This document shows, piece by piece, positions 12,483 to 42,348 of a DNA stretch of 64,000 nt. The position numbers and the translations under genes are program-made. A model generated the notes under the pieces. That model was not told the origin of the DNA. It did no database searches and worked only from the letters and a program-made list of their open reading frames with translations. Each line of letters starts with the position of its first letter. Position 1 is the stretch's first letter. The DNA is from Thermoplasmata archaeon (lineage in GTDB: Archaea; Thermoplasmatota; Thermoplasmata; GCA-020350865), in contig CP070751.1 of the NCBI GenBank assembly GCA_020348445.1, positions 4,812,506-4,876,505 of the forward strand, written 5' to 3'.

Positions 12483-13472
12483 ATGAAAGCCATTGTCTGG
12501 ACAAAATACGGACCTCCAGAGGTCCTTCAACTCAAAGAGGTTCCAAAACCCACCCCCAAGGACAATGAGGTCCTAATCAAGGTCCATGCAACAACGGTAG
12601 CTGCCGGGGACACTGAAATCCGAAATCTCAGGCTCCCCATCGAATATCGGCTTTTATTGCGATTGGTAATAGGTCTAACAAGACCAAAACGTGTAACAAT
12701 TCCAGGTATTGAGGTTGCTGGGAAGATCGAAGCTGTTGGTAAGGAAGTGAAGAGATTCAAGGAAGGTGATGAGGTCTTTGGAGTCACAGGTTTTACCTTC
12801 GGAGCCCATGCTCAGTATGTGTGTCTTCCTGATAAAAATGCCCTGACAATAAAGCCATCCAATATGACTTATGAGGAAGCGGCCAGTGCTGTTATCGGGG
12901 GTATTGAATCTTTGCATTTTCTCAGGGCGGCAAATATCCAAAAAGGTCAAAAGGTCCTTATAGTTGGAGCTTCTGGAAGTATTGGAACGGTTGGTGTGCA
13001 ACTCGCAAAGTACTTTGGTGCCGAGGTTACGGGGGTGTGCAGTACAGACAAGTTGGAAATGGTAAGATCCATTGGAGCCGACTCGGTAATCGATTATACA
13101 AAAGAGGATTATACTAAGGGTGATAAGACCTATGAGGTTATATTTGACGCAATAGGCAAGAGTGATTTTTCAGGATGTAAACGCATACTTAATAAGAATG
13201 GGATTTATCTATTGGCCAACCCCAGACGTTTTCAGAAGATTAGAGGCCTGTGGACATCATTGACAACCAGCAAGAAGATTTATTCCAAGTTAGCTACCTA
13301 TAAAACCGAAGATCTGGACTTCCTCAGGGAACTTATAGAGCAAGGTAAAATAAGATCTATAATTGATAGGAGCTATCCACTGGAAAAGATTCCCGAAGCT
13401 CACAGGTATGTTGAAAAAGGACACAAAGCTGGAAATGTTGTAATAACTGTAGATCATAACAATAAAATCTGA
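12483..13472 (+). CDS. Zinc-independent MDR-family NAD(P)-dependent oxidoreductase, copy 1 (subtype a)
   Basis: [20 protein letters not shown] nucleotide-binding loop, [10 protein letters not shown]; no catalytic-zinc Cys. Confidence 0.92.
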   Translation: MKAIVWTKYGPPEVLQLKEVPKPTPKDNEVLIKVHATTVAAGDTEIRNLRLPIEYRLLLRLVIGLTRPKRVTIPGIEVAGKIEAVGKEVKRFKEGDEVFGVTGFTFGAHAQYVCLPDKNALTIKPSNMTYEEAASAVIGGIESLHFLRAANIQKGQKVLIVGASGSIGTVGVQLAKYFGAEVTGVCSTDKLEMVRSIGADSVIDYTKEDYTKGDKTYEVIFDAIGKSDFSGCKRILNKNGIYLLANPRRFQKIRGLWTSLTTSKKIYSKLATYKTEDLDFLRELIEQGKIRSIIDRSYPLEKIPEAHRYVEKGHKAGNVVITVDHNNKI

Positions 13473-13723
13473 CAAAAAACTGAGGAAAAGACCAGGACAG
13501 TAAATGAAGGAATTTTAGGGTTATATATAAAAAATATAACACCGTTAAGTTAAAATATAGTGAGAATTATTTCCTTTTTAAGCGATTTGTGGTTGAGGTA
13601 ATAAGATAATACTTTACCTGATATGATTTAATTGCATTTCTGAATTGCGTGAACTCAATGCTAGGTTGCTATCAATTCAGATATGAAATCATCTAATATA
13701 AGACAAAAAAGAAGGAGATTAAC

Positions 13724-14686
13724 ATGAAAGCAATTGTATGCACAAAATACGGACCTCCAGAGGTCCTTCAGCTGAAGGAGGTAGAAAAACCCACTCCCAA
13801 GAAAAATGAAATTCGTATTAAGATCCATGCGACCACAGCCACATCAAGTGATTGCATTCTCCGGGGTTTCAACATACCAGCGTGGCACCCAGTGGGACTT
13901 ATGATGGGAATTATGATGGGCTTTGGAAAACCAAGGAACCCCATCCTCGGTTTGGTAGCGGCTGGAGAAGTCGATTCTATGGGAAGTGATGCAAAACGTT
14001 TTAAAATAGGTGATCCAGTTGTTGCCTATACCGCCTTATCACCCACCAAGATCCGATTAGGCACATATGCCCAGTACAATTGTATCCCGGAAGATTGGTT
14101 AGTGGTGCGGAAACCGTCTAATTTAACCTATGAGGAGGCCGCTGCAATCCCCTATCCTGGAGAGCTTGCGATGTTCTTTTTGAAGAAGGGGGATTTCAAA
14201 AATCGGAAGAATGTTCTTATTGTGGGTGCTTCCGGATCCATCGGTACCACTGCAGTGCAGCTTACTAGGCACTTCGGGGCCAATGTGACAGGGGTCTGCA
14301 GTACTTCAAATTTGGAGCTGGTAAGGTCCTTAGGAGCCAAAGAGGTCATCGACTACACAAAAGAGGACTATTCGAAACGCAGTGAGCGATATGATATGAT
14401 ACTGGATGCCGTTCCACAGCAGGTTGCGGATAGGAAAAGATTGAAATCTCAAGCCCAAAACGCACTTACTCCTGATGGGAAGTATGTCTCAATAGATGAT
14501 GGTATAGCCAAGACAAGCTATGAGGATCTTGTTCTAATAATGGACCTTGCGAAGTCTGGTGAGTTCAAACCGGTGATAGACAAAAGCTATCAGCTGGAGC
14601 AGATGGTTGAGGCCCACAGATATGTCGAGACTGGACACAAAAAGGGAAATGTGGTAATAACTGTTAAACAAAACAAAAAAACCTAA
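13724..14686 (+). CDS. Zinc-independent MDR oxidoreductase, copy 2 (subtype b)
   Basis: Same fold motifs; SDCI.RGF and GTTAVQL subtype markers. Confidence 0.92.
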   Translation: MKAIVCTKYGPPEVLQLKEVEKPTPKKNEIRIKIHATTATSSDCILRGFNIPAWHPVGLMMGIMMGFGKPRNPILGLVAAGEVDSMGSDAKRFKIGDPVVAYTALSPTKIRLGTYAQYNCIPEDWLVVRKPSNLTYEEAAAIPYPGELAMFFLKKGDFKNRKNVLIVGASGSIGTTAVQLTRHFGANVTGVCSTSNLELVRSLGAKEVIDYTKEDYSKRSERYDMILDAVPQQVADRKRLKSQAQNALTPDGKYVSIDDGIAKTSYEDLVLIMDLAKSGEFKPVIDKSYQLEQMVEAHRYVETGHKKGNVVITVKQNKKT

Positions 14687-14698
14687 CAAAGTATTGCA
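14681..14698 (+). repeat. Conserved MDR 3' tail ACCTAACAAAGTATTGCA
   Basis: ACCTAAC spans the stop codon; near-identical to 42343..42360. Confidence 0.6.
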
Positions 14699-15299
14699 AA
14701 TAATTAGGGATATGCTGAGTATGAATGCGCTTGAAAGCTGGTTTTCTAAACGAGTAGAGGAGCAATTAAAAGACCTAGCTAGCAAAGTCAGTAGCCATCT
14801 GCGCGTGGCCATCGCCGCTGTGGTTGTTTTAATTCTTATTGTGTTGTACTACATAGCTCATCAATTATCGTCAACAGGTTTTTTTACTGATAAGTTCGGA
14901 CCTTTTGAGATGCTCTTTCTATATGGATCTCTTATTGAATGGATTGTTGTAGCTACATTGGAAGTGTTTGGTCGCAAAGACCTCTCTCGAGATATTGATG
15001 CTTTTGGTGGAATTATTTTTGTCACTATTGGAGGTGCTTGGCTCTTTGTGGTATTTCCCTTTGAATTTGTATATTTTGCTGACATGTTACCAGATTCCCT
15101 CAGATTTCTGTTGCAGTGGATTTCCAACGACATTGCTAAAGTGATAATATTGCTGTGGACCATCTTTCATCTGGTTGCTGCAGTTTATTATGGAATATTG
15201 CGCGTGTTCGTTCGCAAGGCGCGCGCTTTGGAGTCTACCTCAATAGATATAAACGAAGATTTAATACCAGAACAAAGTAATCTTGGAGAATTACCATGA
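14694..15299 (+). CDS. Membrane hypothetical protein
   Basis: About four hydrophobic segments; ATGA overlap with the next MDR gene; start codon uncertain. Confidence 0.65.
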   Translation: MQIIRDMLSMNALESWFSKRVEEQLKDLASKVSSHLRVAIAAVVVLILIVLYYIAHQLSSTGFFTDKFGPFEMLFLYGSLIEWIVVATLEVFGRKDLSRDIDAFGGIIFVTIGGAWLFVVFPFEFVYFADMLPDSLRFLLQWISNDIAKVIILLWTIFHLVAAVYYGILRVFVRKARALESTSIDINEDLIPEQSNLGELP

Positions 15300-16261
15300 A
15301 AGCTATGGTATTTGAAAAATACGGTCAACCAGATGTTCTTCAGCTTAAAGAAGTGGAGAAACCCACTCCCAAGGACGATGAAGTCATGGTAAAGGTCCTC
15401 GCGGCATCTGTAAATGATTGGGACTGGGGTGTCCTGAGAGGCAAGCCACTAGTTAACAGGCTTATATTTGGGCTTACAAGACCAAAAAAAAGTAACATAC
15501 TGGGATGTGACATAGCAGGAAAGGTGGAATCTGTAGAAAAAAATGTAACGAAGTTCAAGCCGGGAGATGAAGTGTTCGGGGACCTTTCCGAGGGTAGTTG
15601 GGGCGGTTATGCCGAGTATGTGTGTGCATCTGAGAATGAATTGGTTCCAAAACCAGCTAAAATGACATTCGAGGAGGCAGCAGCTGTTCCCCAAGTGGGA
15701 TCTATGGTTGTCAAGGGCCTGCTGGATATGGGAAATGTAAAACCTGGACAAAGGGTTTTGTTCAATGGCGCAGGTGGTGGTGTGGGTACATTGGGTGTGC
15801 AGATTGCCAAATCGCTTGGGGCTCATGTGACAGGAGTGGATAAAGCAAGTAAATTGGACATACTACTAAAACTTGGGGCAGACGAGGTAATTGATTACAA
15901 AAAAGAAGATTTCACAAAAAACAGGAAGCAATATGACCTGATTCTTGATGTTATGGTAAACCGTTCAATGTTCGCTTATAAACGTGCACTCAGTCCCAAT
16001 GGAATTTATCTCATGATGGGTGGCTCTATACCTCGAATATTTCTGATTGCTATAGTCTCACCATTGATCATAAGGGGTAAGAAATTGAAAATCTTAGCAT
16101 TGAATCCTAATAAGGGTTTAGATGTATTTTCCGAGCTCTTTGAGGCAGGCAAGGTAAAGCCTGTAATAGATAGAACTTACCCCTTAAGTGAGCTGCCCGA
16201 AGCTCTGGAGTATTTTGGAGAATCGCACCACAAGGGGAAAATAATAATTAAAATTGTATAA
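15296..16261 (+). CDS. Zinc-independent MDR oxidoreductase, copy 3 (subtype c)
   Basis: AASVN.WD, NGAGGGVG, YPLSELPEAL.YF.E.HHKGK. Confidence 0.92.
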   Translation: MKAMVFEKYGQPDVLQLKEVEKPTPKDDEVMVKVLAASVNDWDWGVLRGKPLVNRLIFGLTRPKKSNILGCDIAGKVESVEKNVTKFKPGDEVFGDLSEGSWGGYAEYVCASENELVPKPAKMTFEEAAAVPQVGSMVVKGLLDMGNVKPGQRVLFNGAGGGVGTLGVQIAKSLGAHVTGVDKASKLDILLKLGADEVIDYKKEDFTKNRKQYDLILDVMVNRSMFAYKRALSPNGIYLMMGGSIPRIFLIAIVSPLIIRGKKLKILALNPNKGLDVFSELFEAGKVKPVIDRTYPLSELPEALEYFGESHHKGKIIIKIV

Positions 16262-16277: not shown

Positions 16278-16934
16278 TCAGGAATATCCGGCCATTATAT
16301 CGTCAAGTATTCTTCCCTCGGCTTTTCTCAAATGCTGCATCAGTGTGGCTTTACTGACGTTGACCTTTTTTGATAACTGTTCGCTATTGATTTTTTTAGG
16401 GTAGTTATAATATCCGAACTTGTATGCAGCAACAAGAACCTCTCTTTGTTTGTCAGTTAAAATCGAAAGAATATCCTGCCTTTGGTAAGCTGCCTTTTTG
16501 AATGACATATTCAATATTTTACTGCCCTCTTTTCTAAATATCTCGACCAATTTAGTAAGATTTTCATTTTCGCCTATGCAACTATATGTGACTTTTTTTT
16601 CTGAAATTATTGTGGGAGTTGTACTAATTAAATCTAGATCTAGTTCTCTGAAAGAATCCATTTTATCCTCGGTTTCAAAGTATTTAACAAGACATGTATG
16701 TTTATTACCCTCGGATTTTATAACACTCAGTATTTCCATTTTCCCTATGGATTTTATATCATCAATAGATAAATCCTCTTTTAATATACATTCGATCAGA
16801 TCTACACATATTCCTTCCTCATAGTCGATCTTCAGCGCCTCCAAAATCTCATAAGAATGGACCTTTTCAAACATTGGCTTTAGTTCCTCTCTACCCTTTT
16901 CATCCAATTCTATTTCGATGGTCAATTTTCTCAT
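16278..16934 (-). CDS. HTH_10 transcriptional regulator, copy 5
   Basis: LTDKQREVLVAAYKFGYY...KATLMQHLRKAE. Confidence 0.92.
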   Translation of the reverse strand: MRKLTIEIELDEKGREELKPMFEKVHSYEILEALKIDYEEGICVDLIECILKEDLSIDDIKSIGKMEILSVIKSEGNKHTCLVKYFETEDKMDSFRELDLDLISTTPTIISEKKVTYSCIGENENLTKLVEIFRKEGSKILNMSFKKAAYQRQDILSILTDKQREVLVAAYKFGYYNYPKKINSEQLSKKVNVSKATLMQHLRKAEGRILDDIMAGYS

Positions 16935-16959
16935 TATATCATCTACAGAATCAACTTCT

Positions 16960-16995
16960 GGGTATATAAACTATCATACATGTACGGCTCAAATT
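16960..16995. promoter_or_regulatory. Conserved motif, copy 7
   Basis: GGGTATATAAACTATCATACATGTACGGCTCAAATT; 26 nt from ATG 16934; one mismatch to copy 9. Confidence 0.78.
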
Positions 16996-17038
16996 CCTTG
17001 TATTTTCTAGAGCATACACTAAATTAAGGGTGATCAAG

Positions 17039-17236: not shown

Positions 17237-18139
17237 ATGAAAGCTATTGTATGTGAAAAATTCGGACCACCGGAAGTTCTTAAGCTAAAAGAGGTTCCAA
17301 AACCCACACCCAAGGACAATGAGATATTGGTAAAAATCCATGCAGGAACTGTAACACGAGGGGACCTGCACTTGCGAGGTGCCAATCTTGGGATCAGGTT
17401 CCTCATGCTGATTCTTGGATACAAACAAAAGAAAATAACGGGTCACGAGTTGGCAGGGGAGGTTGAAGCTGTGGGTAAGGACGTTAAAAAGTTCAAAAAA
17501 GGTGACCATGTTTTTGGAACCTCCACTGGATTGATTACCGGTGGTAATGCCGAGTTCATATGTCTGCCTGAAGAATGGAAGAAAGGAGTGGTAGCAACAA
17601 AACCAGCAAACATAACCTTTGAAGAAGCCGCTGCTGTTCCTATCGGTGGAATGACCGCATTACACCTTCTTAGAAAAGGAAATATCCAAAAGGGGCAAAA
17701 GGTCCTTGTATATGGTGCTTCCGGAAGCGTGGGTTCGTACGCAGTTCAGCTGGCAAAGCACTTGGGGGCGGAAGTAACCGGTGTTTGCAGCACCTCGAAT
17801 CTGGAAATGGTGAAGTCCCTGGGAGCGGATTCGGTAATTGATTACAAAAAAGAGGATTTCACAAAAAGCGATCAAAAATATAATTTGATCTTCGATGCTG
17901 TTGGTAAGATTCCCCGTTCAAAAAGAAAAAGGTCGCTTGCCCAAAACGGGTGTTATATATCCATTATGTCCTTAACAACCGAAACCACTGAAAAACTGAT
18001 TTATCTCAAAAAGCTTGTGGAGGCGGGAGAACTAAAAGCGGCTATAGACAGGAGTTATCTATTGGAACAGACGGCTGAGGCCCACAGATATGTTGAAAAG
18101 GGACACAAAAAGGGAAATGTGGTGATCAAAGTTAGATGA
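17237..18139 (+). CDS. Zinc-independent MDR oxidoreductase, copy 4 (subtype d)
   Basis: [27 protein letters not shown]; start aligned at MKAIV (track start 17195). Confidence 0.92.
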
Positions 18140-18446: not shown

Positions 18447-19964
18447 ATGAAAAAATCCATAATTATCATAGGAGCTGGAGTTGCAGGCCTATCTGCAGGA
18501 TGCTATGGGCAGATGAACGGCTATAATACTCAAATTTTCGAGATGCACACCTTGCCTGGCGGTGTTTGCACTACCTGGAAACGCAAGGGCTACAAAATAG
18601 ACGGCTGTATTCACTGGCTAACTGGTATTAAACCCGAAACTGATTTCTATCAGATATGGGAAGAATTGGGTGTATTACCCAACAGTAACATAATCGAACA
18701 CGAAGAGTACGCCCGGATTGAAGGAAAGGATGGCAAAGTTTTTATTGTCTACTCTGACATCGATCGACTGGAACAGCATATGAAGGAGCTTGCTCCCGAG
18801 GATAAGGATTTGATTGAGGACTTTTGCAATGGAATTCGAAAGATGATGGATTTTCACATACCCTGGGAAAAGGCAGCCGATCTATTCGGTCCATTAGATG
18901 TAATCAAATTAATGAAAAGTATGATCCCCTTTGGAGGGATCTTTCGAAAGTGGGGCAATAAAACAATCCAGGATGTTGCCCAGCGCTTTAAAAATCCATT
19001 CATGCGGGAGGCTTTTCCCTATATATTTAACCTCGAAAACCCGCCTGAATTCCCAATATTGGCTGTAATGAAGACTTTTGCATGGATGAACCAGAAAACA
19101 ATTGGCTATCCCATAGGAGGCTCCTTAGAGCTCGCTCGAGTTATAGAGCAGCGTTATCTTTCTTTGGGTGGTAAGATTAACTATAAGTCACGGGTTGTAA
19201 AGATCTTGGTAGAAAATAACAAGGCAGTGGGTGTGCGGCTGGCTGATGGAAGTGAGCACCGTGCTAACATCGTCGTCTCTGCAGCTGATGGTCGTACCAC
19301 CATTTTTGATATGCTGGATGGTAAGTATATCAATAAAAAGGTCAGGGGTTATTATGAAAAACTCGGTCTCTTTGCACCGTTGATTTATATAGGTCTGGGT
19401 GTAAACCACCCGTATGAAGAGATACCGTCAACAGTAACAGGGATAAATTTTCCCTTCGATAAACCCATCAAGATTGGAGAGAGGGAACGGAACCACTTAA
19501 GTGTACAGTTTTATACCTTTGATCCTACCTTGGCCCCTGAGGGCAAGACATTTGTGAGAGTCCATTTTCCCTCAGATTATGACTACTGGGAAAAACTAAA
19601 GAAGGACTCAAAGCTCTACAAAGCCGAAAAGGAGAAGATTGCACAAAAAGTGATTGCCCAACTTGATGCACGTTTTCCAGGATTTGCCGCTGATGTAGAG
19701 ATGCATGATGTGGCAACACCAATGACCTGGGTACGCTACACAGGTAACTGGCGGGGCAGTTTTGAGGGTTGGATAGAAACACCAAAGACAATGAGGATGC
19801 GTATGAGTCAAATGCTGCCTGGTCTTTCTAACTTCTATATGGCAGGGCAATGGGTTCAACCAGGGGGCAGCATCCCCGCCGTGGCAGTGTCGGGTCGAAA
19901 TGCTGTTCAAATAATTTGTAAAAAGGACAAGAAGGAGTTTATGACATCTAAGCCAGCAAAATAA
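18447..19964 (+). CDS. FAD-dependent oxidoreductase, phytoene-desaturase (CrtI)-like superfamily
   Basis: IIGAGVAGL...E....GG..T.W.RKGY.ID dinucleotide-binding N-terminus; C-terminal NFYMAGQWVQPGG. Confidence 0.85.
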   Translation: MKKSIIIIGAGVAGLSAGCYGQMNGYNTQIFEMHTLPGGVCTTWKRKGYKIDGCIHWLTGIKPETDFYQIWEELGVLPNSNIIEHEEYARIEGKDGKVFIVYSDIDRLEQHMKELAPEDKDLIEDFCNGIRKMMDFHIPWEKAADLFGPLDVIKLMKSMIPFGGIFRKWGNKTIQDVAQRFKNPFMREAFPYIFNLENPPEFPILAVMKTFAWMNQKTIGYPIGGSLELARVIEQRYLSLGGKINYKSRVVKILVENNKAVGVRLADGSEHRANIVVSAADGRTTIFDMLDGKYINKKVRGYYEKLGLFAPLIYIGLGVNHPYEEIPSTVTGINFPFDKPIKIGERERNHLSVQFYTFDPTLAPEGKTFVRVHFPSDYDYWEKLKKDSKLYKAEKEKIAQKVIAQLDARFPGFAADVEMHDVATPMTWVRYTGNWRGSFEGWIETPKTMRMRMSQMLPGLSNFYMAGQWVQPGGSIPAVAVSGRNAVQIICKKDKKEFMTSKPAK

Positions 19965-19976: not shown

Positions 19977-20639
19977 TCATTCTGACAAATACCCTGCAAA
20001 TATATTAGCCATGAGCCGTCCTTCCGCTTTTCTCATGTGCTGAACTAATGTTGCCTTACTTAAATTGACCTTTTTGGCTAATTGTTCGCTATTGATCTTC
20101 TTGGGATAATCATAATATCCATGCTTGTTGGCTGCAATGAGGATATCCCTTTGTTTGTCAGTTAAAATCGATATAATATCCTGCTTTTGGTATACTGCCT
20201 TTTTGAATGACATATTTGTAATCGTGCCTCCATATTTTTTTACCAGTTCTACAAATTTGGTAAGGTTCTCATTCTCACCTATATATGATACTGTACATTT
20301 ATCTTCTGTAACTATACTTGGTGTTGATAATATTAAATCGAGGTCAAATTCTTTGAATAACTCCATAGACTCTTCCTCTTCAAAGTATTTTATCAGGCAG
20401 GTGTGTGTATTGCCCTCGGATTTTAAAACGCTCATAATTTCCATTTTGCCTATGGATTTCACATCATCAATGGATATGCCCTCTTTTAATTGCACTTCGA
20501 TGAGATCCACACATAATCCTTCTTCGTAGTTACACTTCAACATATCCAAGATCTGATAAGAGTGGATTTTTTCAAATATAGGTTTTTGCGCTTCTTTTAC
20601 CGTCTCATAGGGTTTGAATTCCAGAATTAACTTTCTCAT
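19977..20639 (-). CDS. HTH_10 transcriptional regulator, copy 6
   Basis: LTDKQRDILIAANKHGYY...KATLVQHMRKAE. Confidence 0.92.
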   Translation of the reverse strand: MRKLILEFKPYETVKEAQKPIFEKIHSYQILDMLKCNYEEGLCVDLIEVQLKEGISIDDVKSIGKMEIMSVLKSEGNTHTCLIKYFEEEESMELFKEFDLDLILSTPSIVTEDKCTVSYIGENENLTKFVELVKKYGGTITNMSFKKAVYQKQDIISILTDKQRDILIAANKHGYYDYPKKINSEQLAKKVNLSKATLVQHMRKAEGRLMANIFAGYLSE

Positions 20640-20675: not shown

Positions 20676-20950
20676 TGTTTAGGTCATTTCGGGCCATTTC
20701 AGAGGTAGGGGATACAATCTAGATTGCTCTTTATGTATAGTGTGTATATAGTTATTAGATGGTTTGCAGCCGATTTTCAAGGGATTTTCACCTTTTTTTC
20801 AAATAAGTTTGAAATTTCAATATATAAACCCGGGCGCAATAGCCTCAAATAGTGATAAAAATGAGAGAATTTGAGCATATATCGCCCCCTCAAAATGCCC
20901 TTGAAAATGAGAAATTCACAAGAATTTTGCCCGGATTTCAAAAAACGTCT

Positions 20951-20986
20951 GGGTATATAAACTATCATATATGTACGGCTCAAATT
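20951..20986. promoter_or_regulatory. Conserved motif, copy 9 (upstream of the ABC operon)
   Basis: GGGTATATAAACTATCATATATGTACGGCTCAAATT. Confidence 0.78.
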
Positions 20987-21032
20987 TTGAATATTTTTCT
21001 GATTATACTCTGAATTAGAATATGGTGATCAA

Positions 21033-27321: not shown

Positions 27322-27364
27322 TTAAGCGTAATAGTGATAATTTCAATAGAAGGATGTGAGAGAA

Positions 27365-30358: not shown

Positions 30359-30435
30359 TAAGGTGAAAAAATGGAGAATACAGAGAAAATGAAAAAAATT
30401 GGTTGTGAATAATATGGTAAAATGGAGGATTCCAT

Positions 30436-31132: not shown

Positions 31133-31248
31133 ATGAAAGCAGTTATACATAAAAAATACAGACCGCCGATGCTATCAGGTATGTAGACAAAGAGTACAAA
31201 AAGGGGAATGTGGCTACAACTGTGGTAAAGAATGACAGCAGAACCTGA
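31133..31248 (+). pseudogene. Internally deleted MDR remnant (copy 12)
   Basis: MKAVIHKKYRPP (MDR N-terminus) is joined out of frame to RYVDKEYKKGNVATTVVKNDSRT* (MDR C-terminus); the body of the gene is missing. Confidence 0.85.
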
Positions 31249-32077: not shown

Positions 32078-32090
32078 AGGAGGTTTTAAA

Positions 32091-35000: not shown

Positions 35001-35126
35001 ATCCCCTGGTTGAACCTGATCGCCATATCAGTCATAGCCTATCTCGCCACAATCATCTTTACATTCTATCCCAGCGTCCAGGCAGCGAAGATTCCACCCG
35101 CGGAGGCGCTGAGGTATATTGAATAA
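32091..35126 (+). CDS. FtsX/MacB-like ABC permease, copy 2
   Basis: EERKSEMGMARAVG and ERRQQIGMLRAIG; ends PAEALRYIE; paralog of 21864..24755. Confidence 0.92.
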   Translation: MDIIMLLMLLFVIIIAVFIAVMAATNRIIFKMAVRNFSRRKLQSLTVICGLMIGTAIISSSLAVQDTMVYMSEVDVYRSLGEVDEEIWGLNSFGTVEYFNESIYETLAENLSSVDGIEAVAPVISDLGAVFDKTTELGDPFVAILGLDSEVLKTTSFGDLDGDHFYPDLLGPDEVAINSRLADEIDALEGHVINLSYGARNPLNPFEPELRVTNFTITKIIQEEDLWGKANYNLRKTVFLEIDTLQLMLNRPGEINYIWISNDGDYRSGESLTKKVNKTIESELELAVNRDNDLTGRNLVLEVHNVKADNLEAARVGAESIGIMFFILGSFAIIAGIVLIINIFVMLGEERKSEMGMARAVGMKSKHLVRMYVFEGSLYAFVAAFIGVFLGLFFGWIIIQAFEYIFGSSEGFVEGASNIQFYFTWGSVIIAFCAGLLLTFATIFLISTRITKLNIIRAIRRIPEPRTSGTKKRSHIMGAVLAILGILSCFIGYSTDAGAGWMLGLPFLFIGSALVIYKWIRFRVAITVASILIIFFLISPFDIPVISEADYSGAESFILGGVFLVLAGVFLVMFNSDILLIMLQRLFSWDKTSRAVFKTAISYPMASKMKTGMTLGMFALIIFTVTVIAMFSSILASQSDAMLEEQSGGYDIMGTTNPRTPFENLSMDTLPSELQDYDIKQLETITSAVVTVEEYDVTKSEGNDFVVPGTMKVEQYQLLGASDAFLSNNGFTLIERDDRYETDGDAWEALSENSSYCIIDGTKLGYMEGDVDPSETIDIVGAFVGGTITITDMGGSNRTRVLTVIGIMDQMFFFQGILVQKDVVRNEYGGVDSLVLIELGEGEDTDTVAKAFEKHYLELGLQTSDLAGIINSFISLFNNMLYLMEGFLGIGLLVGIAGIGIISYRNVIERRQQIGMLRAIGFKRRMIAKSFLIETSFITILGILIGIALGIGVGYQMYVDFYKEEGSRFVIPWLNLIAISVIAYLATIIFTFYPSVQAAKIPPAEALRYIE

Positions 35127-35233: not shown

Positions 35234-36367
35234 ATGAAAAGAAAAAAAGATAAACCAATCCTAGAGGATCGAGAAAAATACGACAGGAGGCTATTAATTT
35301 TCTTTTCCTTTTGGGTTCTTTTAGGTCTCTTTTTCAACATAATGGGTATATTCATAATTAGGGAACAAAGTTTAGGCTCTTTAATCCCTGGTCTTCTTGA
35401 GAGTTTGAGCTTTGCCTTCTTCATTACGGGATTACTTGCTATTAAATATCACCGTAAAAGGGGAATAATCCCCGGAAAAAGGATCTTGAAATGGTTTGCA
35501 AAGATCTCATTGGTCATTGGTTTGGTGGTTGCTGTGGGGATGACCTTGCTCGCTACACAGACAACGATTTTTGAAGACCAATTTATTGGATTGAGTGGAG
35601 TCGAAGTGATCGGATTGTTCATCGTTATGTATATCTTTGGGTTTTTTTTTGGTTTTGTCTTCCCGCTTTTTTTTATGATCGCGGGTTTTGGTATGATAGG
35701 GGTCTTGTCTGCTCTTATAAGACTCAAAACAGCCGATCTTTTGGTGGAAATAACGAAAATTACCCCCAATACATCGGATTCAGTGAAAGAAAAGGACAAA
35801 AAAACATACATGGGATACATCTGGTTAGGATGGGCATTCAATATTCCGGATGTTCTTGATACGAGAGCACTTGACATAAATAGAGGCGAGCCAAAAAAAA
35901 AGATACCCTGGCCAATACTCAAACAGGCGGTAATATGGCAGATATTTTTCGGCCTCGTTATTGTGATTTATATCAGTTTCAGTCCATTCTTTTTGGATAT
36001 CACGGAAATGGGGTTTATGTTCAGCATAGCCTCAAATGTAACCAACTTTATTCCGATATTCATTCTTCCATGGTTCATATATCTAAGGCTCGATGCTAAA
36101 ATCAAGGGTATAGTAAAGGACTTCAAGCTCTTTGACGGGTTAAAATCCCGAATGTTACAGACTATTGTGGCCTTCAGCACACTCATCCTCTTTGTTCGGA
36201 TGGCATTGGTGCGTCCAGGTTTTAAAGATATTATTGGCGACTTCCTTGGCTACTTCATGCTCTTTATAATAACTGTAATAGTGACAACGTTCGTATACTT
36301 CAACTACTTCGAAAATGACCTTGCATACGACATTGCACGAAAATATGAAGAGATAAAGATAAGATAG
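35234..36367 (+). CDS. Multi-pass membrane hypothetical protein
   Basis: Many hydrophobic segments; family not recognised. Confidence 0.7.
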   Translation: MKRKKDKPILEDREKYDRRLLIFFSFWVLLGLFFNIMGIFIIREQSLGSLIPGLLESLSFAFFITGLLAIKYHRKRGIIPGKRILKWFAKISLVIGLVVAVGMTLLATQTTIFEDQFIGLSGVEVIGLFIVMYIFGFFFGFVFPLFFMIAGFGMIGVLSALIRLKTADLLVEITKITPNTSDSVKEKDKKTYMGYIWLGWAFNIPDVLDTRALDINRGEPKKKIPWPILKQAVIWQIFFGLVIVIYISFSPFFLDITEMGFMFSIASNVTNFIPIFILPWFIYLRLDAKIKGIVKDFKLFDGLKSRMLQTIVAFSTLILFVRMALVRPGFKDIIGDFLGYFMLFIITVIVTTFVYFNYFENDLAYDIARKYEEIKIR

Positions 36368-36426: not shown

Positions 36427-37341
36427 ATGAAAGCAATTTTATATGAAAAATCCGGCCCACCGGAGGTTCTTCAGCTCAAAGAGGTTCCAAAACCCACACC
36501 AAAGGACAATGAGATACTAGTAAAAATTCATGCTGGAACAGTAACGAGAGGAGATGTGATGCTTCGTGGAGCTGGTCTATTTATCAACTTCATGATGTTG
36601 ATATTGGGATTCAAAAAGAAGAAAATACCAGGGCATGAGTTGGCCGGGGAAATTGAAGCAGTGGGCAAGGATGTAAAACTTTTTAAGAAAGGTGACCAGA
36701 TCTTTGGAACCAGTACAGGATTGGTTTATGGAGGCAATGCCCAATACGTTTGTCTTCCTGAACAATGGAAACAAGGGGTTGTGACAAAAAAACCGGTTAA
36801 TATTACCTTTGAGGAGGCTGCGGCGGTTCCGATAGGAGGTATGACCGCCCTTTGGATCCTTAGAAAAGGAAATATCAAGAAAGGACAAAAGGTCCTTGTT
36901 TATGGGGCCTCTGGAAGTGTAGGTACGTATGCTGTCCAGCTTGCCAAGCACTTCGGGGCAGAAGTAACAGGGGTATGCAGTACCAAGAATTTGGAAATGG
37001 TGAAATCAATTGGAGCGGATTCGGTAATAGATTACACAAAAGAGGATTTTTCCAAAGGAAGTACCAAGTATGACATTATCTTCGATGCTGTAGGGAAAGT
37101 TAAATCCTCCCAGAGAAAAGTTTCGTTAAATAAAAATGGAAAATATGTCTCCATTAGATCCCTTACAAAAGAAAAGACAGAAAATCTGCTATTTCTTAAG
37201 GAGCTTGTGGAGAAGGGAAGGATAAAACCGGTCATAGATAAACGCTATACAATGGAACAGATCGTCGAGGCTCATAGGTATGTCGAAACCGGTCACAAAA
37301 GGGGGAATGTGGTAATTACTGTGGCGCATAACAAAACCTAA
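36427..37341 (+). CDS. Zinc-independent MDR oxidoreductase, copy 8 (subtype d)
   Basis: Closest to copy 4 ([21 protein letters not shown]); track start 36412. Confidence 0.92.
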
Positions 37342-37360: not shown

Positions 37361-38353
37361 ATGAAAGCCATAGTCTGGACAAAATACGGATCCCCGGATT
37401 ATCTAAAGCTCCAAGAGGTTGACAAACCCACTCCAAAGGACAATGAAGTACTGATAAAAATACATGCAACAACAGTAACGGCAGGTGATACTGAGGTTCG
37501 AAGACTGAAGTTACCCATGGGTCTGGGATTTCTCATGCGCATGTTTGTAGGTCTAAGAAGACCAAAAAGGTTAACCATTCTTGGCCAGGAACTGGCTGGT
37601 GAAATTGAAGCTGTGGGCAAGGATGTAAAACGATTTAAGAAAGGCGATCATGTTTTTGGATCTCCGGGTTTTAATATGGGTGCTTATGCTGAATATAAAA
37701 GCATGCCTGCAAATCCAGAAGATGGGGTGCTGGCAAAAAAGCCCGCCAATATGACATTCGAGGAGGCCGCTAGTGTAATTATAGGAGGAATGGAATCAAT
37801 GCATTTTCTTGGAAAAGCAAACATCCAAAGCGGGGAAAAGGTTCTGATCAATGGTGCCGGTGGTAGTATAGGAACTTTTGGGGTACAGTTTGCAAAATCA
37901 CTAGGTGCCGAGGTTACTGCCGTGGATAGTACACGAAAAATGGATATGTTGTGGGAGATCGGGGCGGATGAGGTCATTGATTATACCAAAGAAGATTTTA
38001 CCAAAAGCGGCAAGACCTATGATGTCATCTTTGATGTCGTAGGCAAGGCTCCATATTCTGGATGTATAAATTCGCTTAAGCAAAATGGGCGCTATCAGTT
38101 GGCCAATCCCAGGATATCAAAGATTATTCGAGGGAAATTGATTTCAAAGAAAAGCGGCAAGAAGGTAACAACTGCCGTGGCAAACTACAAAACTGAAGAT
38201 CTGATTGCTATAAAAGAACTAATTGAGGAAGGGAAAGTACGATCTGTTATCGACAGATGCTATCCTCTGGAACAAATTCCCGAGGCCCATAGATATGTTG
38301 AAAAGGGTGGTAAAAAGGGAAATGTGGTAATCACGCTTGGGCATGACAAATAA
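37361..38353 (+). CDS. Zinc-independent MDR oxidoreductase, copy 9 (subtype a)
   Basis: Closest to copy 1 (MKAIVWTKYG, AGDTE, LANPR, YKTEDL). Confidence 0.92.
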   Translation: MKAIVWTKYGSPDYLKLQEVDKPTPKDNEVLIKIHATTVTAGDTEVRRLKLPMGLGFLMRMFVGLRRPKRLTILGQELAGEIEAVGKDVKRFKKGDHVFGSPGFNMGAYAEYKSMPANPEDGVLAKKPANMTFEEAASVIIGGMESMHFLGKANIQSGEKVLINGAGGSIGTFGVQFAKSLGAEVTAVDSTRKMDMLWEIGADEVIDYTKEDFTKSGKTYDVIFDVVGKAPYSGCINSLKQNGRYQLANPRISKIIRGKLISKKSGKKVTTAVANYKTEDLIAIKELIEEGKVRSVIDRCYPLEQIPEAHRYVEKGGKKGNVVITLGHDK

Positions 38354-38368: not shown

Positions 38369-38842
38369 ATGAAAACTATACTAGTCCTGTATTCGTATCA
38401 TCACATGAACACTGAGAAGGTCGCAAAGGTGATGGCTAAGGTCCTAGATGCACAGATAAAAACACCACAGGAAATAGATCCAAAAGATCTTAGGGAATAT
38501 GATCTTGTGGGTTTTGGATCGGGAATATATGGTGAAAAACATCATAAATTTTTGCTTGATCTTGCAGACAAATTACCACATGTTGCTAACAAGAAAGGAT
38601 TCATTTTCTCAACCAGCGCCATCATGGGAAAGGACAAGGTCGCCGAAGATCATGCGACCCTCAGAAAAAAACTGCAATCCAAAGGTTACATCATCGTTGA
38701 TGAATTTGCCTGTAAAGGTTTTAACACAAATAGCTTTCTTAAATATTTCGGGGGAATGAACAAGGGCAGGCCCAATACCAGGGACCTGGAAAATGCAAAG
38801 GAGTTTGCTCAAAAGCTAATTCAGAAAGCAAAGGGCTCATAG
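38369..38842 (+). CDS. Flavodoxin-family protein
   Basis: YSYHHMNTEKVA FMN loop; YDLVGFGSGIYG; KGRPN..DLE.AKEFA. Confidence 0.85.
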   Translation: MKTILVLYSYHHMNTEKVAKVMAKVLDAQIKTPQEIDPKDLREYDLVGFGSGIYGEKHHKFLLDLADKLPHVANKKGFIFSTSAIMGKDKVAEDHATLRKKLQSKGYIIVDEFACKGFNTNSFLKYFGGMNKGRPNTRDLENAKEFAQKLIQKAKGS

Positions 38843-38870
38843 CTATATGGATAAGAATTGAGGTAAGATT

Positions 38871-39686
38871 GTGATAATAGACGGACATGCTCATGCGTGT
38901 GGCGGTTACTTAAATGCAGAATCAATAAAGATTAAAATTGATCAAACAGGTGTTGATAAGGTAGTTCTCGTTCCGGGCCAGCTTAACAGTTCTAAAACAT
39001 ACAAACTTAAAGACTATACAAAAAAGGATCCCCATAAGGATGTTGTAAAGAGGACGAACAAGATCATAAGATTTGGAATTACTCTATTAAGGGTCCACAA
39101 GACCATCCCAAAGGGAAATGAACATGTATATTCCCTGGCAAAGGCCCTTCCGGATAATGTTATTCAGTTCTTCTGGGTCACCAAAGCACAAGTGGGGGAG
39201 ATTGATGCGAAATACATGGAAATGATTTTTAAAGGACTCAAGTTACACCAATGCTGGGAGTATTTCAAAGTCGATTCCAATTATTTTAAAACCGTTGCCA
39301 ATTGGGCAACACGAAATGATATGCCCCTTTTCATTCATTTATATTCATACAAAGATGTTGCAGATCTTATAGAATACTTAAAACACAACCAGAATATCAA
39401 ACTGATAAATGGTCATTTGTTCGGCCTTGAGCTTTTTATGAAAGAAGATATCGATATTCTAAATAACGTGTACTTTGATGTTTCAAATAATTGCTTCATA
39501 TCGAATGAACGATTTGAAAAAGCACTAAAACATTTTAGCAGCAAAAAACTATTAATGGGATCTGATATCCCTTACGGGGAGAAAAGTCTGGAGAGAGTGA
39601 TTTCCCGGATCAAGGGCCTTGGAATTTCTAAGGATAAAAGAGAAGAAATTCTTGGTAATAATATGAAGAGATTATTATCTATATAA
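38871..39686 (+). CDS. Amidohydrolase-family metalloenzyme (Amidohydro_2-like)
   Basis: IDGHAH, GLKLH, PLFIH, GHL, YFDVS and MGSDIP motifs. Confidence 0.85.
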   Translation: MIIDGHAHACGGYLNAESIKIKIDQTGVDKVVLVPGQLNSSKTYKLKDYTKKDPHKDVVKRTNKIIRFGITLLRVHKTIPKGNEHVYSLAKALPDNVIQFFWVTKAQVGEIDAKYMEMIFKGLKLHQCWEYFKVDSNYFKTVANWATRNDMPLFIHLYSYKDVADLIEYLKHNQNIKLINGHLFGLELFMKEDIDILNNVYFDVSNNCFISNERFEKALKHFSSKKLLMGSDIPYGEKSLERVISRIKGLGISKDKREEILGNNMKRLLSI

Positions 39687-39719: not shown

Positions 39720-40667
39720 ATGAAAGCCATCGTATGCATAAAATACGGGCCGCCGGAAGTTCTTAAACTGAAAGATGTTCCCAAACCCACTCCAAAGAAC
39801 AATGAGGTCCTCATAAAGATTCGCACAACACAAGTAACGGCAAGCGACTGCATAGTTCGTGGTTTTAAACTGTCGCGTTGGTCCCCTTTAGGATTCATGA
39901 TGGGACTTGCATTAGGTTTTAGAAAACCGAGACAACCAATACTAGGTATGGTCTTAGCTGGAGAAATCGAATCTGTAGGTAGAGATGTTAAGCGATTTAA
40001 GAAGGGTGATGCGGTCTATGGAATGACCGGTTTAAGTTTTGCTACCTATGCCGAGTATAAAAGTATTTCCGAGAAAGAATGCCTGGTAAAAAAACCATCC
40101 AGTGTAAGTTATGAGGAAGCCGCTGCAGCCGCTTATGGAGGAATCATAGCAGGTCATTTTATTAAGAAAGCAAACATCCAAAAGGGACAGAAGGTGCTTA
40201 TCTATGGAGCTTCCGGGGCAAATGGAACCACCGCGGTGCAGCTTGCCAAGTATTACGGGGCCGAGGTCACTGGCGTATGTAGTACAAAGAATTTGGAGAT
40301 GGTAAGGTCCCTGGGAGCCGATTCCGCTATTGATTATACAAAAGAGGATCTGTTAAGCAGGGGAGAACGGTACGATCTTGTCTTTGATGCCGTTGGAAAC
40401 AAGAAAACCTCGAAATTGAAATCACAGTGCAAGAAAGTGCTAACCAAGAGCGGGAAATATATGTCAGTGGATAAAGGATCACCAAAATCCATACCCGAAC
40501 ATCTTGAATTGCTAAATAAATTATTTGAAGAGGGAAAATACAAAGCCGTTATAGACAGAACCTATCCACTGGGACAGATGATTGAGGCTCATAGGTATGT
40601 TGACAAAGGGCATAAAAAGGGGAATGTGGTAATAACTGTGGGACAGAATAATAAAACTGAAACTTAG
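39720..40667 (+). CDS. Zinc-independent MDR oxidoreductase, copy 10 (subtype b)
   Basis: Closest to copy 2 (SDCIVRGF, W.P.G.MMG, LKSQ). Confidence 0.92.
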   Translation: MKAIVCIKYGPPEVLKLKDVPKPTPKNNEVLIKIRTTQVTASDCIVRGFKLSRWSPLGFMMGLALGFRKPRQPILGMVLAGEIESVGRDVKRFKKGDAVYGMTGLSFATYAEYKSISEKECLVKKPSSVSYEEAAAAAYGGIIAGHFIKKANIQKGQKVLIYGASGANGTTAVQLAKYYGAEVTGVCSTKNLEMVRSLGADSAIDYTKEDLLSRGERYDLVFDAVGNKKTSKLKSQCKKVLTKSGKYMSVDKGSPKSIPEHLELLNKLFEEGKYKAVIDRTYPLGQMIEAHRYVDKGHKKGNVVITVGQNNKTET

Positions 40668-40678
40668 TAGGAATTCAG

Positions 40679-41317
40679 ATGGATAAATCAGAGAAGATCT
40701 GGGACAAAATCGCAGATAATTATGATAAATCTGAAAAGCGTTTTGAACCCATTCACAAAAAGACTATCGAGAACACCAAAAAATACCTCAATTCAACTGA
40801 TATTGTTTTAGATTACGGATGTGCCACAGGAACAAAAGCCCTTGAACTTGCCAGCAGTGTGAAAAGGATTCAGGGCATTGATATATCGTCAAAAATGATC
40901 GAAGCTGCAAAAAGAAAGGCAGTTGAGCGTAAAATCGAGAATGTGGTTTTTACACATGCAATTATTTTTGATGAGAGGTATAAAAGAGAATCATTTGATG
41001 TGATACTGGCCTTTAATATTCTGCATTCATTAGAAGGCCACAAGCAGGTTCTGAAAAGAATAAACGAACTTTTAAAGCCGGGAGGTTTATTTATTTCTGT
41101 AACCCCGTGTCTGAAGGAAAAAATGGCCATTAGGAATAGATTAGAATTATCTTTCTTCCGTCTACTGATAATAATCAGAGTATTTCCGAATATTTTAACA
41201 AGATTTAAAATCCCTGAATTGGAGGATCTAATAACTAGTGGAAATTTTCAAATAATTGAAACTGAAAATATATTTCATAGGATGACTAGTTATTTTGTTA
41301 CTGCAAAGAAGATATAG
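40679..41317 (+). CDS. Class I SAM-dependent methyltransferase
   Basis: VLDYGCATG motif I, GIDISSKMI, FDVILAFNILH, LKPGGLFI. Confidence 0.9.
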   Translation: MDKSEKIWDKIADNYDKSEKRFEPIHKKTIENTKKYLNSTDIVLDYGCATGTKALELASSVKRIQGIDISSKMIEAAKRKAVERKIENVVFTHAIIFDERYKRESFDVILAFNILHSLEGHKQVLKRINELLKPGGLFISVTPCLKEKMAIRNRLELSFFRLLIIIRVFPNILTRFKIPELEDLITSGNFQIIETENIFHRMTSYFVTAKKI

Positions 41318-41361
41318 AGAACATGACAATCACTGGATCGAAAAAAGTAGGAAGGATACTC

Positions 41362-42348
41362 ATGAAAGCTGTCGTGTGCAAAAGATACGGATCACCAATG
41401 AAAGTCCTAAAGCTCAAAGAGGCCCCAAAACCCACACCTAGGGACAACGAGGTCCTGGTAAAGATCCATGCTGCCTCGGTAAATGCAGCCGATGTGGAGA
41501 TCCTAAGAGGTGCCTGGACTGCCCGAATGACAGGGCCTTTAAGACCAAGAAGCAGGATACCTGGATCAGACGTTGCGGGAGTTGTTGAATCAGTTGGTAA
41601 GAACGTTACGAAGTTCAAGCCAGGAGATGAGGTGTTCGGAGACACGTTCATGAAAGGTTTTGGAGCTTTTGCAGAGTATAAAAGTGCACCCGAAAAGGAA
41701 TTGTATATCAAACCAAAGGGTATGACCTTCGAACAAGCATCTTGTTATCCTCAATCTGGGATCATTGCCCTCCAGGGTCTAAGGAACAAACACCCTATCA
41801 AACCTGGACAAACTGTACTTATCAACGGTGCAGGTGGTGGTATGGGTACCTTTGCAGTGCAAATCGCTAAGCACTATGGGGCAGAGGTGACCGCAGTGGA
41901 TCATACAAGTAAAATCGACATGCTGCATTCAATTGGTGCAGACCATGTTATGGATTACACAAAAGAGGATTACACAAAAACCGGAAAGACCTACAACCTG
42001 ATCCTTGATGTTGTGGCCGGTCGAAAGGTTAAGGACTATGAACGTGCTTTGAGTGATTACGGAAATTTTGTCATAGTAGGAGGTTCCAGGGCTACGATCT
42101 TCAAGGTTATTTTCCTTGGTCCTATTGTTACAAGAAAAAGTAACAAGAAGATGGGGCTCAATGATTGGAGTTCAGACAAAAATGAAGATATGAGATTTTT
42201 AATGGAATTATTTGAGGCGGGCAAAGTAAAACCTGTAATAGATAAACATTACCCGTTAAGGGAGGTTCCTGAGGCCTATCGGTATCTTGAGGAGGGACAT
42301 GTAAAGGGGAAATTGGTTATAACTATGGGACATGACAACAAAACCTAA
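41362..42348 (+). CDS. Zinc-independent MDR oxidoreductase, copy 11 (subtype c)
   Basis: Closest to copy 3 (AASVN, NGAGGG.GT, YPL.E.PEA); track start 41323. Confidence 0.92.
   Translation: MKAVVCKRYGSPMKVLKLKEAPKPTPRDNEVLVKIHAASVNAADVEILRGAWTARMTGPLRPRSRIPGSDVAGVVESVGKNVTKFKPGDEVFGDTFMKGFGAFAEYKSAPEKELYIKPKGMTFEQASCYPQSGIIALQGLRNKHPIKPGQTVLINGAGGGMGTFAVQIAKHYGAEVTAVDHTSKIDMLHSIGADHVMDYTKEDYTKTGKTYNLILDVVAGRKVKDYERALSDYGNFVIVGGSRATIFKVIFLGPIVTRKSNKKMGLNDWSSDKNEDMRFLMELFEAGKVKPVIDKHYPLREVPEAYRYLEEGHVKGKLVITMGHDNKT

Follow-up and report, generated by a model that had tools for sequence, protein, structure and literature searches.

The zinc-free medium-chain dehydrogenases/reductases (MDRs) of the clade that holds human RTN4IP1 and plant ceQORH are poorly understood. 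Here we describe an accessory gene island of a Thermoplasmata archaeon (GenBank assembly GCA_020348445.1) that encodes eleven such enzymes within 30 kb. It lies on contig CP070751.1, in a stretch of 64,000 nucleotides (positions 4,812,506 to 4,876,505 of the forward strand) that is called the window below and to whose first letter all coordinates refer unless the genome is named. From sequence comparison the island is read, with a probability of roughly 0.5, as an inducible battery that would reduce and export reactive hydrophobic compounds of sediment organic matter.

Described relatives and comparable arrays

The closest solved relatives of the eleven copies in a profile search were 2vn8 (RTN4IP1; 3.8e-58), 4ida (FaEO; 9.7e-58), 3tqh (the quinone oxidoreductase, QOR, of Coxiella; 1.1e-55) and 5a3j (ceQORH; 7.3e-55). 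These four are also the closest by sequence and head the fold search, in which the AF2 model matched QOR folds with Foldseek E-values of 1e-22 to 1e-24, and the polyketide synthase (PKS) enoyl reductases CurK and JamJ are detectable relatives by profile search. The copies are members of the zinc-free QOR-type branch of the MDRs and belong to the RTN4IP1/ceQORH/AOR clade.

The role of ceQORH, the gamma-ketol/oxoene reductase of the Arabidopsis chloroplast envelope (5A3J/5A4D), is oxylipin detoxification. It is an NADPH-using, peripheral membrane enzyme with a large and poorly conserved ligand site for long-chain unsaturated carbonyls and a mobile loop, Leu97-Gly103, that touches the ligand (PMC5343027). 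Like the archaeal copies it is a zinc-free QOR-type MDR, and it is among their best sequence and fold matches; in the alignment, its mobile loop and ligand-site residues fall on the most variable segments of the paralogues. Unlike the array, it is the product of a single plant gene with no partner membrane-protein gene; identity to the copies is about 29-33%, and the insert that follows the GD motif is longer in the paralogues, where it is cationic and hydrophobic.

Loss of human RTN4IP1 (OPA10), a mitochondrial NADPH oxidoreductase, causes optic atrophy. This protein, the top profile match, resembles the copies in its VT.VCS signature behind beta-2 and in having a long insert at the corresponding place. 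It acts in the biosynthesis of coenzyme Q (CoQ), a lipid-soluble quinone (PMC10830421). In contrast to the array it is eukaryotic, single-copy and tied to CoQ biosynthesis, and no link of the island to quinone synthesis was found. A third relative, FaEO of Fragaria, catalyses the NADPH-dependent reduction of an alpha,beta-unsaturated carbonyl in flavour biosynthesis. FaEO and Arabidopsis AOR (4IDA-4IDF) fall in the same clade as the copies, with about 30% identity over the full length, and differ from the array as soluble plant enzymes of small substrates with neither an array nor a membrane partner. Substrate size in AOR/FaEO is determined by a loop close to the site (PMC5343027).

A literature search on MDR paralogues in archaea returned general MDR reviews and the analogy of SAR202, and no paper on these arrays was found. 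In SAR202 Chloroflexota, catabolic paralogue expansions consist of many old paralogues of a single oxidoreductase family retained in a genome, which presumably widen the range of organic compounds handled (PMC10444878). These belong to other enzyme families in aerobic, marine organisms, and the likeness is an analogy of concept only. A bacterial counterpart is found in an Anaerolineales bin (JBFFEL010000024.1, 156-20897), where nine MDR open reading frames (ORFs) of several subtypes occupy 21 kb, with eight crowded into the first 11 kb, together with two DUF6326 genes, one DUF4386 gene and a convergent MacB/ABC pair. That array differs from the island in having a MalT/LuxR STAND regulator, not HTH_10, and it also holds beta-lactamase-family and acyltransferase_3 genes. 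A relative from the same phylum as the archaeon carries six copies on one contig. Both arrays resemble the island in co-orientation and in shared subtypes, with fewer copies per array.

The first-pass annotation of the window had proposed the island as a candidate for an undescribed system. This was an overstatement, since the enzyme family is known and widespread (9898 clusters at 50% identity, E<=1e-30), tandem arrays recur, and the 30 kb is not conserved as a unit. The island is unusual in size rather than in kind. Known already are the enzyme family and paralogue arrays as such; new are the scale of the array, the ancient, cross-domain collection of subtypes, and the recurrent coupling to DUF4386 and DUF6326.

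Eleven zinc-free MDR genes and one remnant

Eleven intact MDR genes, all on the + strand, lie in 30 kb of the window, and all of them (11/11) have Pfam ADH_N plus ADH_zinc_N or ADH_zinc_N_2 above the cut-offs. The first-pass annotation had listed eleven co-oriented, intact and diverged MDRs of 300-330 aa and one remnant, had noted that they lack the catalytic-zinc Cys, and had given their variants of the GHE tripeptide; Pfam, alignment and tblastn bear out this set, and all eleven tripeptides match those listed. Lengths are counted from a conserved MKA(I/V)V start, with a Shine-Dalgarno-like GGAG/GAGG upstream. For six genes the ORF opens before that start, at the position given below after "from"; for the other five the two coincide.

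Reading from the left, MDR1 (12483..13472; 329 aa, GIE) belongs to a clade, starred in the tree, with Chloroflexota, Asgard and Actinomycetota sequences, and MDR2 (13724..14686; 320 aa, GLV) to a subtype common to MDR10 and to Anaerolineae and Ignavibacteria sequences. MDR3 (15296..16261; 321 aa, GCD) and, at the right end, MDR11 (41362..42348, from 41323; 328 aa, GSD) fall in deep clade A of the tree. MDR4 (17237..18139, from 17195; 300 aa, GHE) is a local duplicate with 76% identity to MDR8 (36427..37341, from 36412; 304 aa, GHE). MDR5 (24843..25748, from 24816; 301 aa, GHE) is followed by MDR6 (26380..27303, from 26371; 307 aa, GYE), which stands in a starred clade with Asgard sequences, and by MDR7 (28100..29020; 306 aa, GME), which has an orthologue with 86% identity in G001, a genome of the same genus. 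MDR9 (37361..38353; 330 aa, GQE) and MDR10 (39720..40667, from 39714; 315 aa, GMV) complete the set. Pairwise protein identity among the eleven copies is 40-76% in a MAFFT alignment.

The zinc ligands were checked by alignment against three MDRs of the zinc type from this genome (GVCHTD or GICGSD, GHE, four-Cys lobe). None of the eleven has a Cys at the Cys46 position, as the first pass had noted, and the four-Cys lobe for structural zinc is missing too, appearing as a gap of about 30 columns. Three copies keep the His of GHE and are without the other catalytic-zinc ligands (the Cys46/His67/Cys174 equivalents). An A/GxxGxxG dinucleotide-binding motif is present in 11/11, in the forms GASGS(I/V/L)G, GAGG(G/S)xG or GASGANG.

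A hidden Markov model of the family finds 13 copies in the single-contig genome of 5.16 Mb (E 1e-117 to 1e-157). Eleven of these 13 lie within 30 kb, or 0.6% of the genome, a clustering far beyond chance; the other two are at 1.037 and 1.826 Mb of the genome.

The remnant (31133..31248, +), recognised by tblastn, consists of 12 N-terminal codons (MKAVIHKKYRPP) fused out of frame to the last 27 codons (..IRYVDKEYKKGNVATTVV..), about 270 codons having been deleted internally. In G001 a locus on the - strand (L082, 743-2424) has the MDR7 orthologue, then a DUF6326-like gene (81% identity), then a 39-codon MDR stub that is closest to MDR5/MDR6; this locus is a decayed mini-array. Since stubs are present both in this genome and in its congener, gain and loss of MDRs are ongoing.

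Origin and retention of the copies

The best matches in reference genomes, at 55-69% identity, come from Anaerolineae and other Chloroflexota, Asgard archaea, Bathyarchaeia, Ignavibacteria, Bacillales and others. With the exception of MDR4 and MDR8, the copies are each more similar to some protein of another phylum than to any paralogue in the same genome. In a FastTree of 266 rows the 13 copies of this genome require about 10 label changes, and in an IQ-TREE of 55 rows the copies split into two deep clades, each with 100% support, plus several subtypes. MDR4/8 (with MDR5) is the only local clade in both trees; MDR1 and MDR9 are sisters in the FastTree run only, and a Methanomassiliicoccaceae sequence adjoins MDR11 in the IQ-TREE. 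The approximately unbiased (AU) test rejected a single clade of all eleven copies (delta-lnL 729, p 3.9e-5) and also a single clade of the nine clade-B copies (p 3e-105). A recent tandem amplification in one local burst is ruled out by the AU test and by both trees.

The middle residue of the GxE tripeptide tracks subtype across phyla, with GYE for the MDR6 type, GQE for MDR9, GHE for MDR8, G(M/L)V for MDR2/10 and G(S/A)D for MDR3/11; GYE is conserved in 5/6 relatives of MDR6 and GQE in 10/15 relatives of MDR9. The MDR8-MDR9 pair is likewise old, being colinear at the DNA level in three bins, one of them Asgard (L018, L024, L073), and in a relative of the same class (G029). By the trees, the AU test, the cross-phylum tracking of GxE and these old gene pairs, the reductase library consists mainly of accumulated pre-existing subtypes. 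At least eight subtypes already existed in other phyla, and no more than two or three local duplications are seen.

The copies are also retained. The ratio of nonsynonymous to synonymous substitution (dN/dS) is 0.13-0.18 in 5/6 paralogue pairs (0.14 for MDR4/MDR8) and 0.29 for MDR3/MDR11; against the G001 orthologue, MDR7 gives a dN/dS of 0.13 at an unsaturated dS of 0.63. These ratios indicate that each copy is held intact by purifying selection. The GC content of the MDR genes, 0.40-0.46, lies within the genome's 0.43 +/- 0.04, and GC at third codon positions (GC3) is likewise typical, which rules out a recent horizontal transfer of the copies. Among relatives the array is specific to the lineage: there are 13 copies here and 0-1 in the genomes of the same genus, any copy is found in 5/31 relatives and in 25/301 genomes of the phylum sample, and eleven in one cluster is the largest array observed in this analysis.

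The first-pass view of a retained, diversified set and not a recent amplification is thus upheld by the rejection of monophyly, the low dN/dS (about 0.13) and the subtype-wise conservation of GxE across phyla. The diversity of this set mostly did not arise locally, at least eight subtypes pre-existing in other phyla.

Variation between subtypes

Variation among the paralogues, measured as entropy, peaks in an insert of 22-31 residues after a conserved GD, in the segment after EEAA and in the C-terminal portion of the cofactor domain. The insert and the EEAA segment (residues 52-78 and 144-153 in MDR5 numbering) align with the Cys46/His67 and Cys174 regions, which form the lining of the active site in zinc-type MDRs. 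An alignment also shows that the loop that corresponds to the substrate-length loop of AOR/FaEO differs in length among the paralogues. By these alignments, the differences between subtypes are greatest where the polypeptide lines the active site of MDRs.

Other differences concern beta-2 and the cofactor domain. Eight copies have VCS(T/H) after beta-2, as in RTN4IP1, and MDR3, MDR9 and MDR11 have VD. An insert of about 20 residues is present in the cofactor domain of MDR1, MDR3, MDR9 and MDR11, and the other copies are without it; the zone of this insert concerns dimer contacts in ceQORH and in E. coli QOR (PMC5343027). Given VD in place of VCS and an insert in a dimer-contact zone, the copies may differ in cofactor preference and in oligomeric state. 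NADPH is the predicted cofactor of the VCS(T/H) copies, and NADH might be that of MDR3, MDR9 and MDR11. Hydrophobic substrates are plausible in view of the closest relatives (ceQORH, FaEO, RTN4IP1), the coupling to membrane proteins and the exporters described below.

Small membrane proteins beside the reductase genes

Several MDR genes of the island directly follow a gene for a small membrane protein. An unnamed protein with four transmembrane (TM) segments in the TM scan and no Pfam family (14694..15299, +) has its stop overlapping the start of MDR3 (ATGA; -4 nt). A divergent DUF6326 protein with three hydrophobic stretches (25919..26374, +) ends 5 nt before MDR6, and DUF4386a (27356..28093, +; Pfam E 3.8e-36) ends 6 nt before MDR7. 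The tandem genes DUF4386b and DUF4386c (29696..31101, +; Pfam), whose closest relatives are in three Asgard loci (L011, L027, L057), are followed by the MDR remnant, and an unnamed 7-TM protein without a Pfam family (35234..36367, +; TM scan) lies upstream of MDR8. A Pfam match to DUF4760 defines a further, single-TM protein (29097..29588, +). The DUF6326-like protein of the window has no Pfam match of its own, and 10/13 aligned homologues match PF19851. A comparison with hhalign of the DUF6326-like protein and DUF4386 gave 82% probability (E 1e-5) over TM-rich columns, from which homology is not claimed. A protein-cluster search with DUF4386a returned DUF4386 clusters only.

The same neighbourhood recurs elsewhere. 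All four DUF4386 genes of this genome are within 2.4 kb of an MDR gene, the off-island locus included, as are two DUF6326-like genes, that of the window and the single paralogue which it retrieved when used as query. The off-island units have the order HTH_10 | DUF4386 -> MDR -> GNAT, behind an MMPL transporter, and DUF6326 -> MDR; no MDR lies near an additional Pfam match to DUF6326 at 2.65 Mb. Among 30 relatives the sole other DUF4386 gene also stands beside an MDR, and a control search detected both DUF4386 and DUF6326 in Methanosarcina acetivorans. In 85 external loci, which had been selected for their MDRs, 26 such membrane genes occur in 19 loci from at least 7 phyla; 26/26 are co-oriented with the nearest MDR, 14 are within 150 bp of it, and the DUF6326-like gene adjoins MDRs in 10 loci. 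MDR genes are thus coupled repeatedly, in this genome and in at least 7 phyla, to genes for small membrane proteins, whether DUF4386, divergent DUF6326 or unnamed. A literature search for DUF4386, DUF6326, PF14329 and PF19851 found no mention of them in the library that was searched. Complex prediction for MDR7 with DUF4386a, each with its own alignment, scored 0.00, which speaks neither for nor against binding.

Regulators and transcription units

Six HTH_10 regulators on the - strand each face a cargo unit on the + strand. Three of them border the MDR genes: that of unit d (11634..12347; Pfam E 2.5e-20) is divergent from MDR1-MDR2-unk201-MDR3, that of unit e lies at 16278..16934 (Pfam E 5e-21), and that of unit f at 19977..20639 (Pfam). 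Between the second of these and MDR4 lies a candidate promoter/operator cassette of 74 nt (GGGTATATAAACTATC...; 16953..17026, +; repeat family D17), a second copy of which (20944..21017, +) stands ahead of the first ABC gene. Throughout the genome, every strong HTH_10 paralogue has at its 5' end the motif GGGTATWTAAACTAYC of the cassette, with 13 matches against 1.7 expected. The sites of the motif are at 616, 2083, 4703, 9451, 10843, 12308, 16960, 20660 and 20951 of the window, of which 12308 marks the 5' end of the unit d regulator and 20660 belongs to unit f, and at 1036491, 1967378, 4208789 and 1031785 of the genome; extra copies occur without a regulator at hand. The cassette also contains a dyad such as CCGTATATGAACGG, directly beside the TATA box, which is a candidate operator. 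In three regulators, that of unit f among them, the TATA box is about 24 nt before the start codon, a distance that fits leaderless mRNAs.

The unit HTH_10 | DUF4386 -> MDR recurs at 1.036 Mb of the genome and in one other genome (G024). In the Anaerolineales array a MalT/LuxR regulator takes the place of HTH_10; the regulators are thus host-specific and the cargo is shared. Past the promoter cassette and ahead of MDR4 lies an ORF of 43 codons (MEQKPKNKIGGW...; 17040-17171, +), which may encode a leader peptide or a small protein or be there by chance.

The + strand genes from 21033 to 42348 do not form one operon of 21 kb. Between the first MacB gene and MDR5, at 24756-24842, a GC-rich hairpin (GGGGCGGGG-TT-CCCCGCCC) and a T-run directly precede a consensus TTTATATA box at a distance of 36 nt from the start of MDR5, an arrangement that looks like a terminator-promoter junction that would split the long run; these features, with gaps of 107-251 nt elsewhere, rule out the single operon. 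To the right the genes are packed in the order ABC2-MacB2-7TM-MDR8-MDR9-flavodoxin-amidohydrolase-MDR10-methyltransferase-MDR11, with 107 nt before the 7-TM gene and gaps of 11-59 nt from it onward.

Exporters, other neighbours and flanks

Two exporters are encoded on the + strand of the island: an ABC ATPase with a duplicated FtsX/MacB-type permease (21033..24755; Pfam ABC_tran, FtsX, MacB_PCD) and an ABC ATPase with a MacB-type permease (31388..35126; Pfam). MacB-type ABC pairs also recur near MDRs in other genomes. A FAD oxidoreductase of the CrtI family follows MDR4 (18447..19964, +; Pfam Amino_oxidase, with NCBIfam crtI_fam below its cut-off), and the MDR->CrtI-like pair is also found in a Spirochaetales bin (E 1e-131). 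Flavodoxin-like and TatD/amidohydrolase-like proteins (38369..39686, +; Pfam) come after MDR9; a flavodoxin gene follows the MDR pair in one other bin (L024) as well, and a close homologue is present in another locus (L025). The class I S-adenosylmethionine (SAM) methyltransferase at 40679..41317 (+; Pfam) has homologues at seven MDR loci, of which five are strong matches (E 1e-51 to 1e-63); in the four strong loci that were mapped, the gene abuts an MDR in L045 and L070 and is about 1 kb off in L006 and L022. Beyond MDR11, on the - strand, lies a PEMT/ICMT-like membrane methyltransferase (42369..43079; Pfam PEMT E 4e-12, NCBIfam matches weak). Of the neighbours that the first pass took to fit a family of hydrophobic substrates, the CrtI-like and SAM-methyltransferase genes recur beside MDRs elsewhere, and the ICMT/PEMT-like gene mostly does not.

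At 43148-45379 a gene for the arsenite methyltransferase ArsM (NCBIfam NF008823, 361 bits against a cut-off of 263) follows a radical SAM/SPASM gene. Two adjacent ORFs at 9713-10746, 35 kb to the left, have weak to moderate matches to the permease family ArsP_1, with E 2.6e-4 (below the Pfam cut-off) and 1.5e-8. The ArsM and ArsP-like genes may be an organoarsenical detoxification set that borders the island. From 45393 to the end of the window (64000) the - strand holds a giant ORF of more than 6200 aa that runs off the window, with a GC content of 0.47-0.50, above that of the island. Genes for a 646-aa protein without a Pfam family, a membrane protein and a PAP2 phosphatase at 5163-8681 form a block colinear with G001 (73-80% DNA identity), where it has an unrelated genome position.

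Identity to G001 is 77% over the left flank of the island, which is colinear with that genome, and 70-85% for the G001 homologues of several island genes. These values match, and the island genes are accordingly assigned to this lineage. The synteny with G001 ends about 10 kb to the left of the window, and the G001 homologues of the island genes are scattered. No tRNA gene was found in the window or in its two flanks of 20 kb each, and no integrase was seen among the annotated genes, so that the island is not called an integrative element. Genome completeness is estimated at 82% and contamination at 3.8%; completeness is equally low in G001, which suggests a lineage effect on the marker set.

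Proposed function of the island

The region is an accessory gene island in which at least eight subtypes of a single zinc-free MDR subfamily, all of ancient divergence, have come together and two or three local duplicates have been added. In the reduce-and-export battery proposed above, the enzymes would act with NAD(P)H on activated C=C or C=O bonds (those of an enone, alkenal, ketol or quinone), each in a different compound that is lipophilic and partitions into membranes. Handling of these compounds at the membrane would fall to the coupled small membrane proteins (DUF4386, DUF6326-like, 4-TM and 7-TM) and to the two MacB-type ABC exporters, and the divergent HTH_10 regulators would turn on each unit through the shared promoter cassette. 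The MacB-type exporters, the MMPL and GNAT genes at the off-island unit, ArsM and the ArsP-like permeases would give the surroundings a flavour of detoxification, which is consistent with this reading. So is the insert after GD, which is hydrophobic with a net charge of +2 to +6, the whole proteins having +6 to +21 in all eleven; such an insert would suit docking on an anionic membrane surface, in the manner of ceQORH.

Several observations weigh on the other side. The closest characterised relatives have different roles, in CoQ biosynthesis, flavour and oxylipin detoxification; since RTN4IP1, ceQORH and FaEO do different jobs, detoxification is one of several options. Among the NCBIfam models (TIGR02824 PIG3, NF008024 Qor, acrylyl-CoA and crotonyl-CoA reductases) none reached its cut-off for MDR5. 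TIGR02824 is the best NCBIfam match among the eleven (E 6.6e-53), MDR5 scoring 160 bits against a cut-off of 297, and the E-values of the other ten copies are of the same order as that of MDR5. With scores below the cut-offs the chemistry is assigned at the level of the family, and a specific enzyme name is withheld from the copies. The comparison of net charges used raw ORFs as background and paralogues that are not independent. DUF4386 is not tied to MDRs in general: 0/8 DUF4386 plasmid loci of aerobic bacteria have an MDR within 3-4 kb, and in 2/8 a divergent TetR gene is found in its place. Finally, the packed run that ends with MDR11 looks like a pathway and not like a set of stand-alone enzymes.

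Among the alternatives, an unlikely yet respectable one is a catabolic or electron-sink library, in which the reductases would serve carbon or redox balance and not protection, by preparing or consuming recalcitrant compounds of detritus (enones and quinones from lignin or humic matter). The family and its arrays are found mainly in anaerobic sediment heterotrophs (Anaerolineae, Bathyarchaeia, Asgard archaea and Ignavibacteria), and the genome, rich in accessory genes, has 5.16 Mb compared with 2.3-3.7 Mb in four congeners and 1.2-2.3 Mb in most of the class; the SAR202 expansions (PMC10444878) offer a precedent, and a flavodoxin and an amidohydrolase gene lie inside the operon. Against such a library, the transporters are of exporter type (MacB/FtsX, MMPL) and not for uptake, the island genes include no thiolases, CoA ligases or ring-cleavage enzymes, and soluble NAD(P)H-consuming reductases alone conserve no energy.

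A bolder proposal, rather speculative and slightly less probable again, takes as the repeated unit a two-part module of a small integral membrane protein (DUF4386, DUF6326 or an unnamed 4-7-TM protein) followed by a peripheral MDR. A substrate in the lipid phase (quinone, isoprenoid or oxidised lipid) would be extracted by the membrane partner for, or presented by it to, a cationic, membrane-docking NAD(P)H reductase, and the island would be a combinatorial library of such modules common to archaea and bacteria of anoxic sediments.

It is doubtful that the island is one or more biosynthetic clusters for a modified lipid, isoprenoid or quinone, in which the MDRs would be enoyl or double-bond reductases working in succession alongside the CrtI-like enzyme, the methyltransferases, the PEMT/ICMT-like protein and PAP2, the product being exported by MacB. 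The tight packing from the 7-TM gene through MDR11 is the best argument for it; RTN4IP1 supports CoQ synthesis (PMC10830421), CurK and JamJ are among the detectable relatives, and the MDR->CrtI-like and MDR->SAM-methyltransferase pairs recur in bacteria. Conservation nevertheless stops at sub-modules of two or three genes, the full set being found nowhere among the loci compared, and each subtype also occurs alone or in other combinations. Genomes of the same genus lack nearly all of the island, a poor fit to a core lipid or quinone pathway, and no prenyltransferase, PKS or scaffold-forming enzyme is among the island genes. Gene content and order are not conserved in the way expected of a single biosynthetic gene cluster, sub-modules alone being recurrent (MDR8-MDR9(-flavodoxin), MDR->SAM-methyltransferase, MDR->CrtI-like, DUF4386/DUF6326->MDR).

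That the array is a strain chimera, a collapsed repeat or a set of silent, neutrally drifting copies is highly improbable in spite of the completeness and contamination estimates and of the one copy that is already a stub, for the copies are 24-60% apart in protein sequence, far beyond strain variation, the genome is one contig of uniform GC and GC3, eleven frames are open at a dN/dS of about 0.13, the identity of G001 homologues matches that of the core flank, and independent assemblies from other phyla hold the same kind of array.

Implications

If the enzymes were ordinary quinone reductases of broad range, the island would be large but unremarkable as an accessory island; if the two-part module were true, it would represent an undescribed class of membrane-surface reductase systems. 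The eleven natural variants, with differences focused on the active site and orthologues across phyla, offer a comparative panel for substrate choice in the RTN4IP1/ceQORH clade. For DUF4386 and DUF6326 the array provides a first consistent functional context, beside reductases and exporters and under local regulators. Taken as an inducible reduce-and-export battery, the island suggests that uncultured archaea and bacteria of sediments exchange a common toolkit against reactive hydrophobic compounds.

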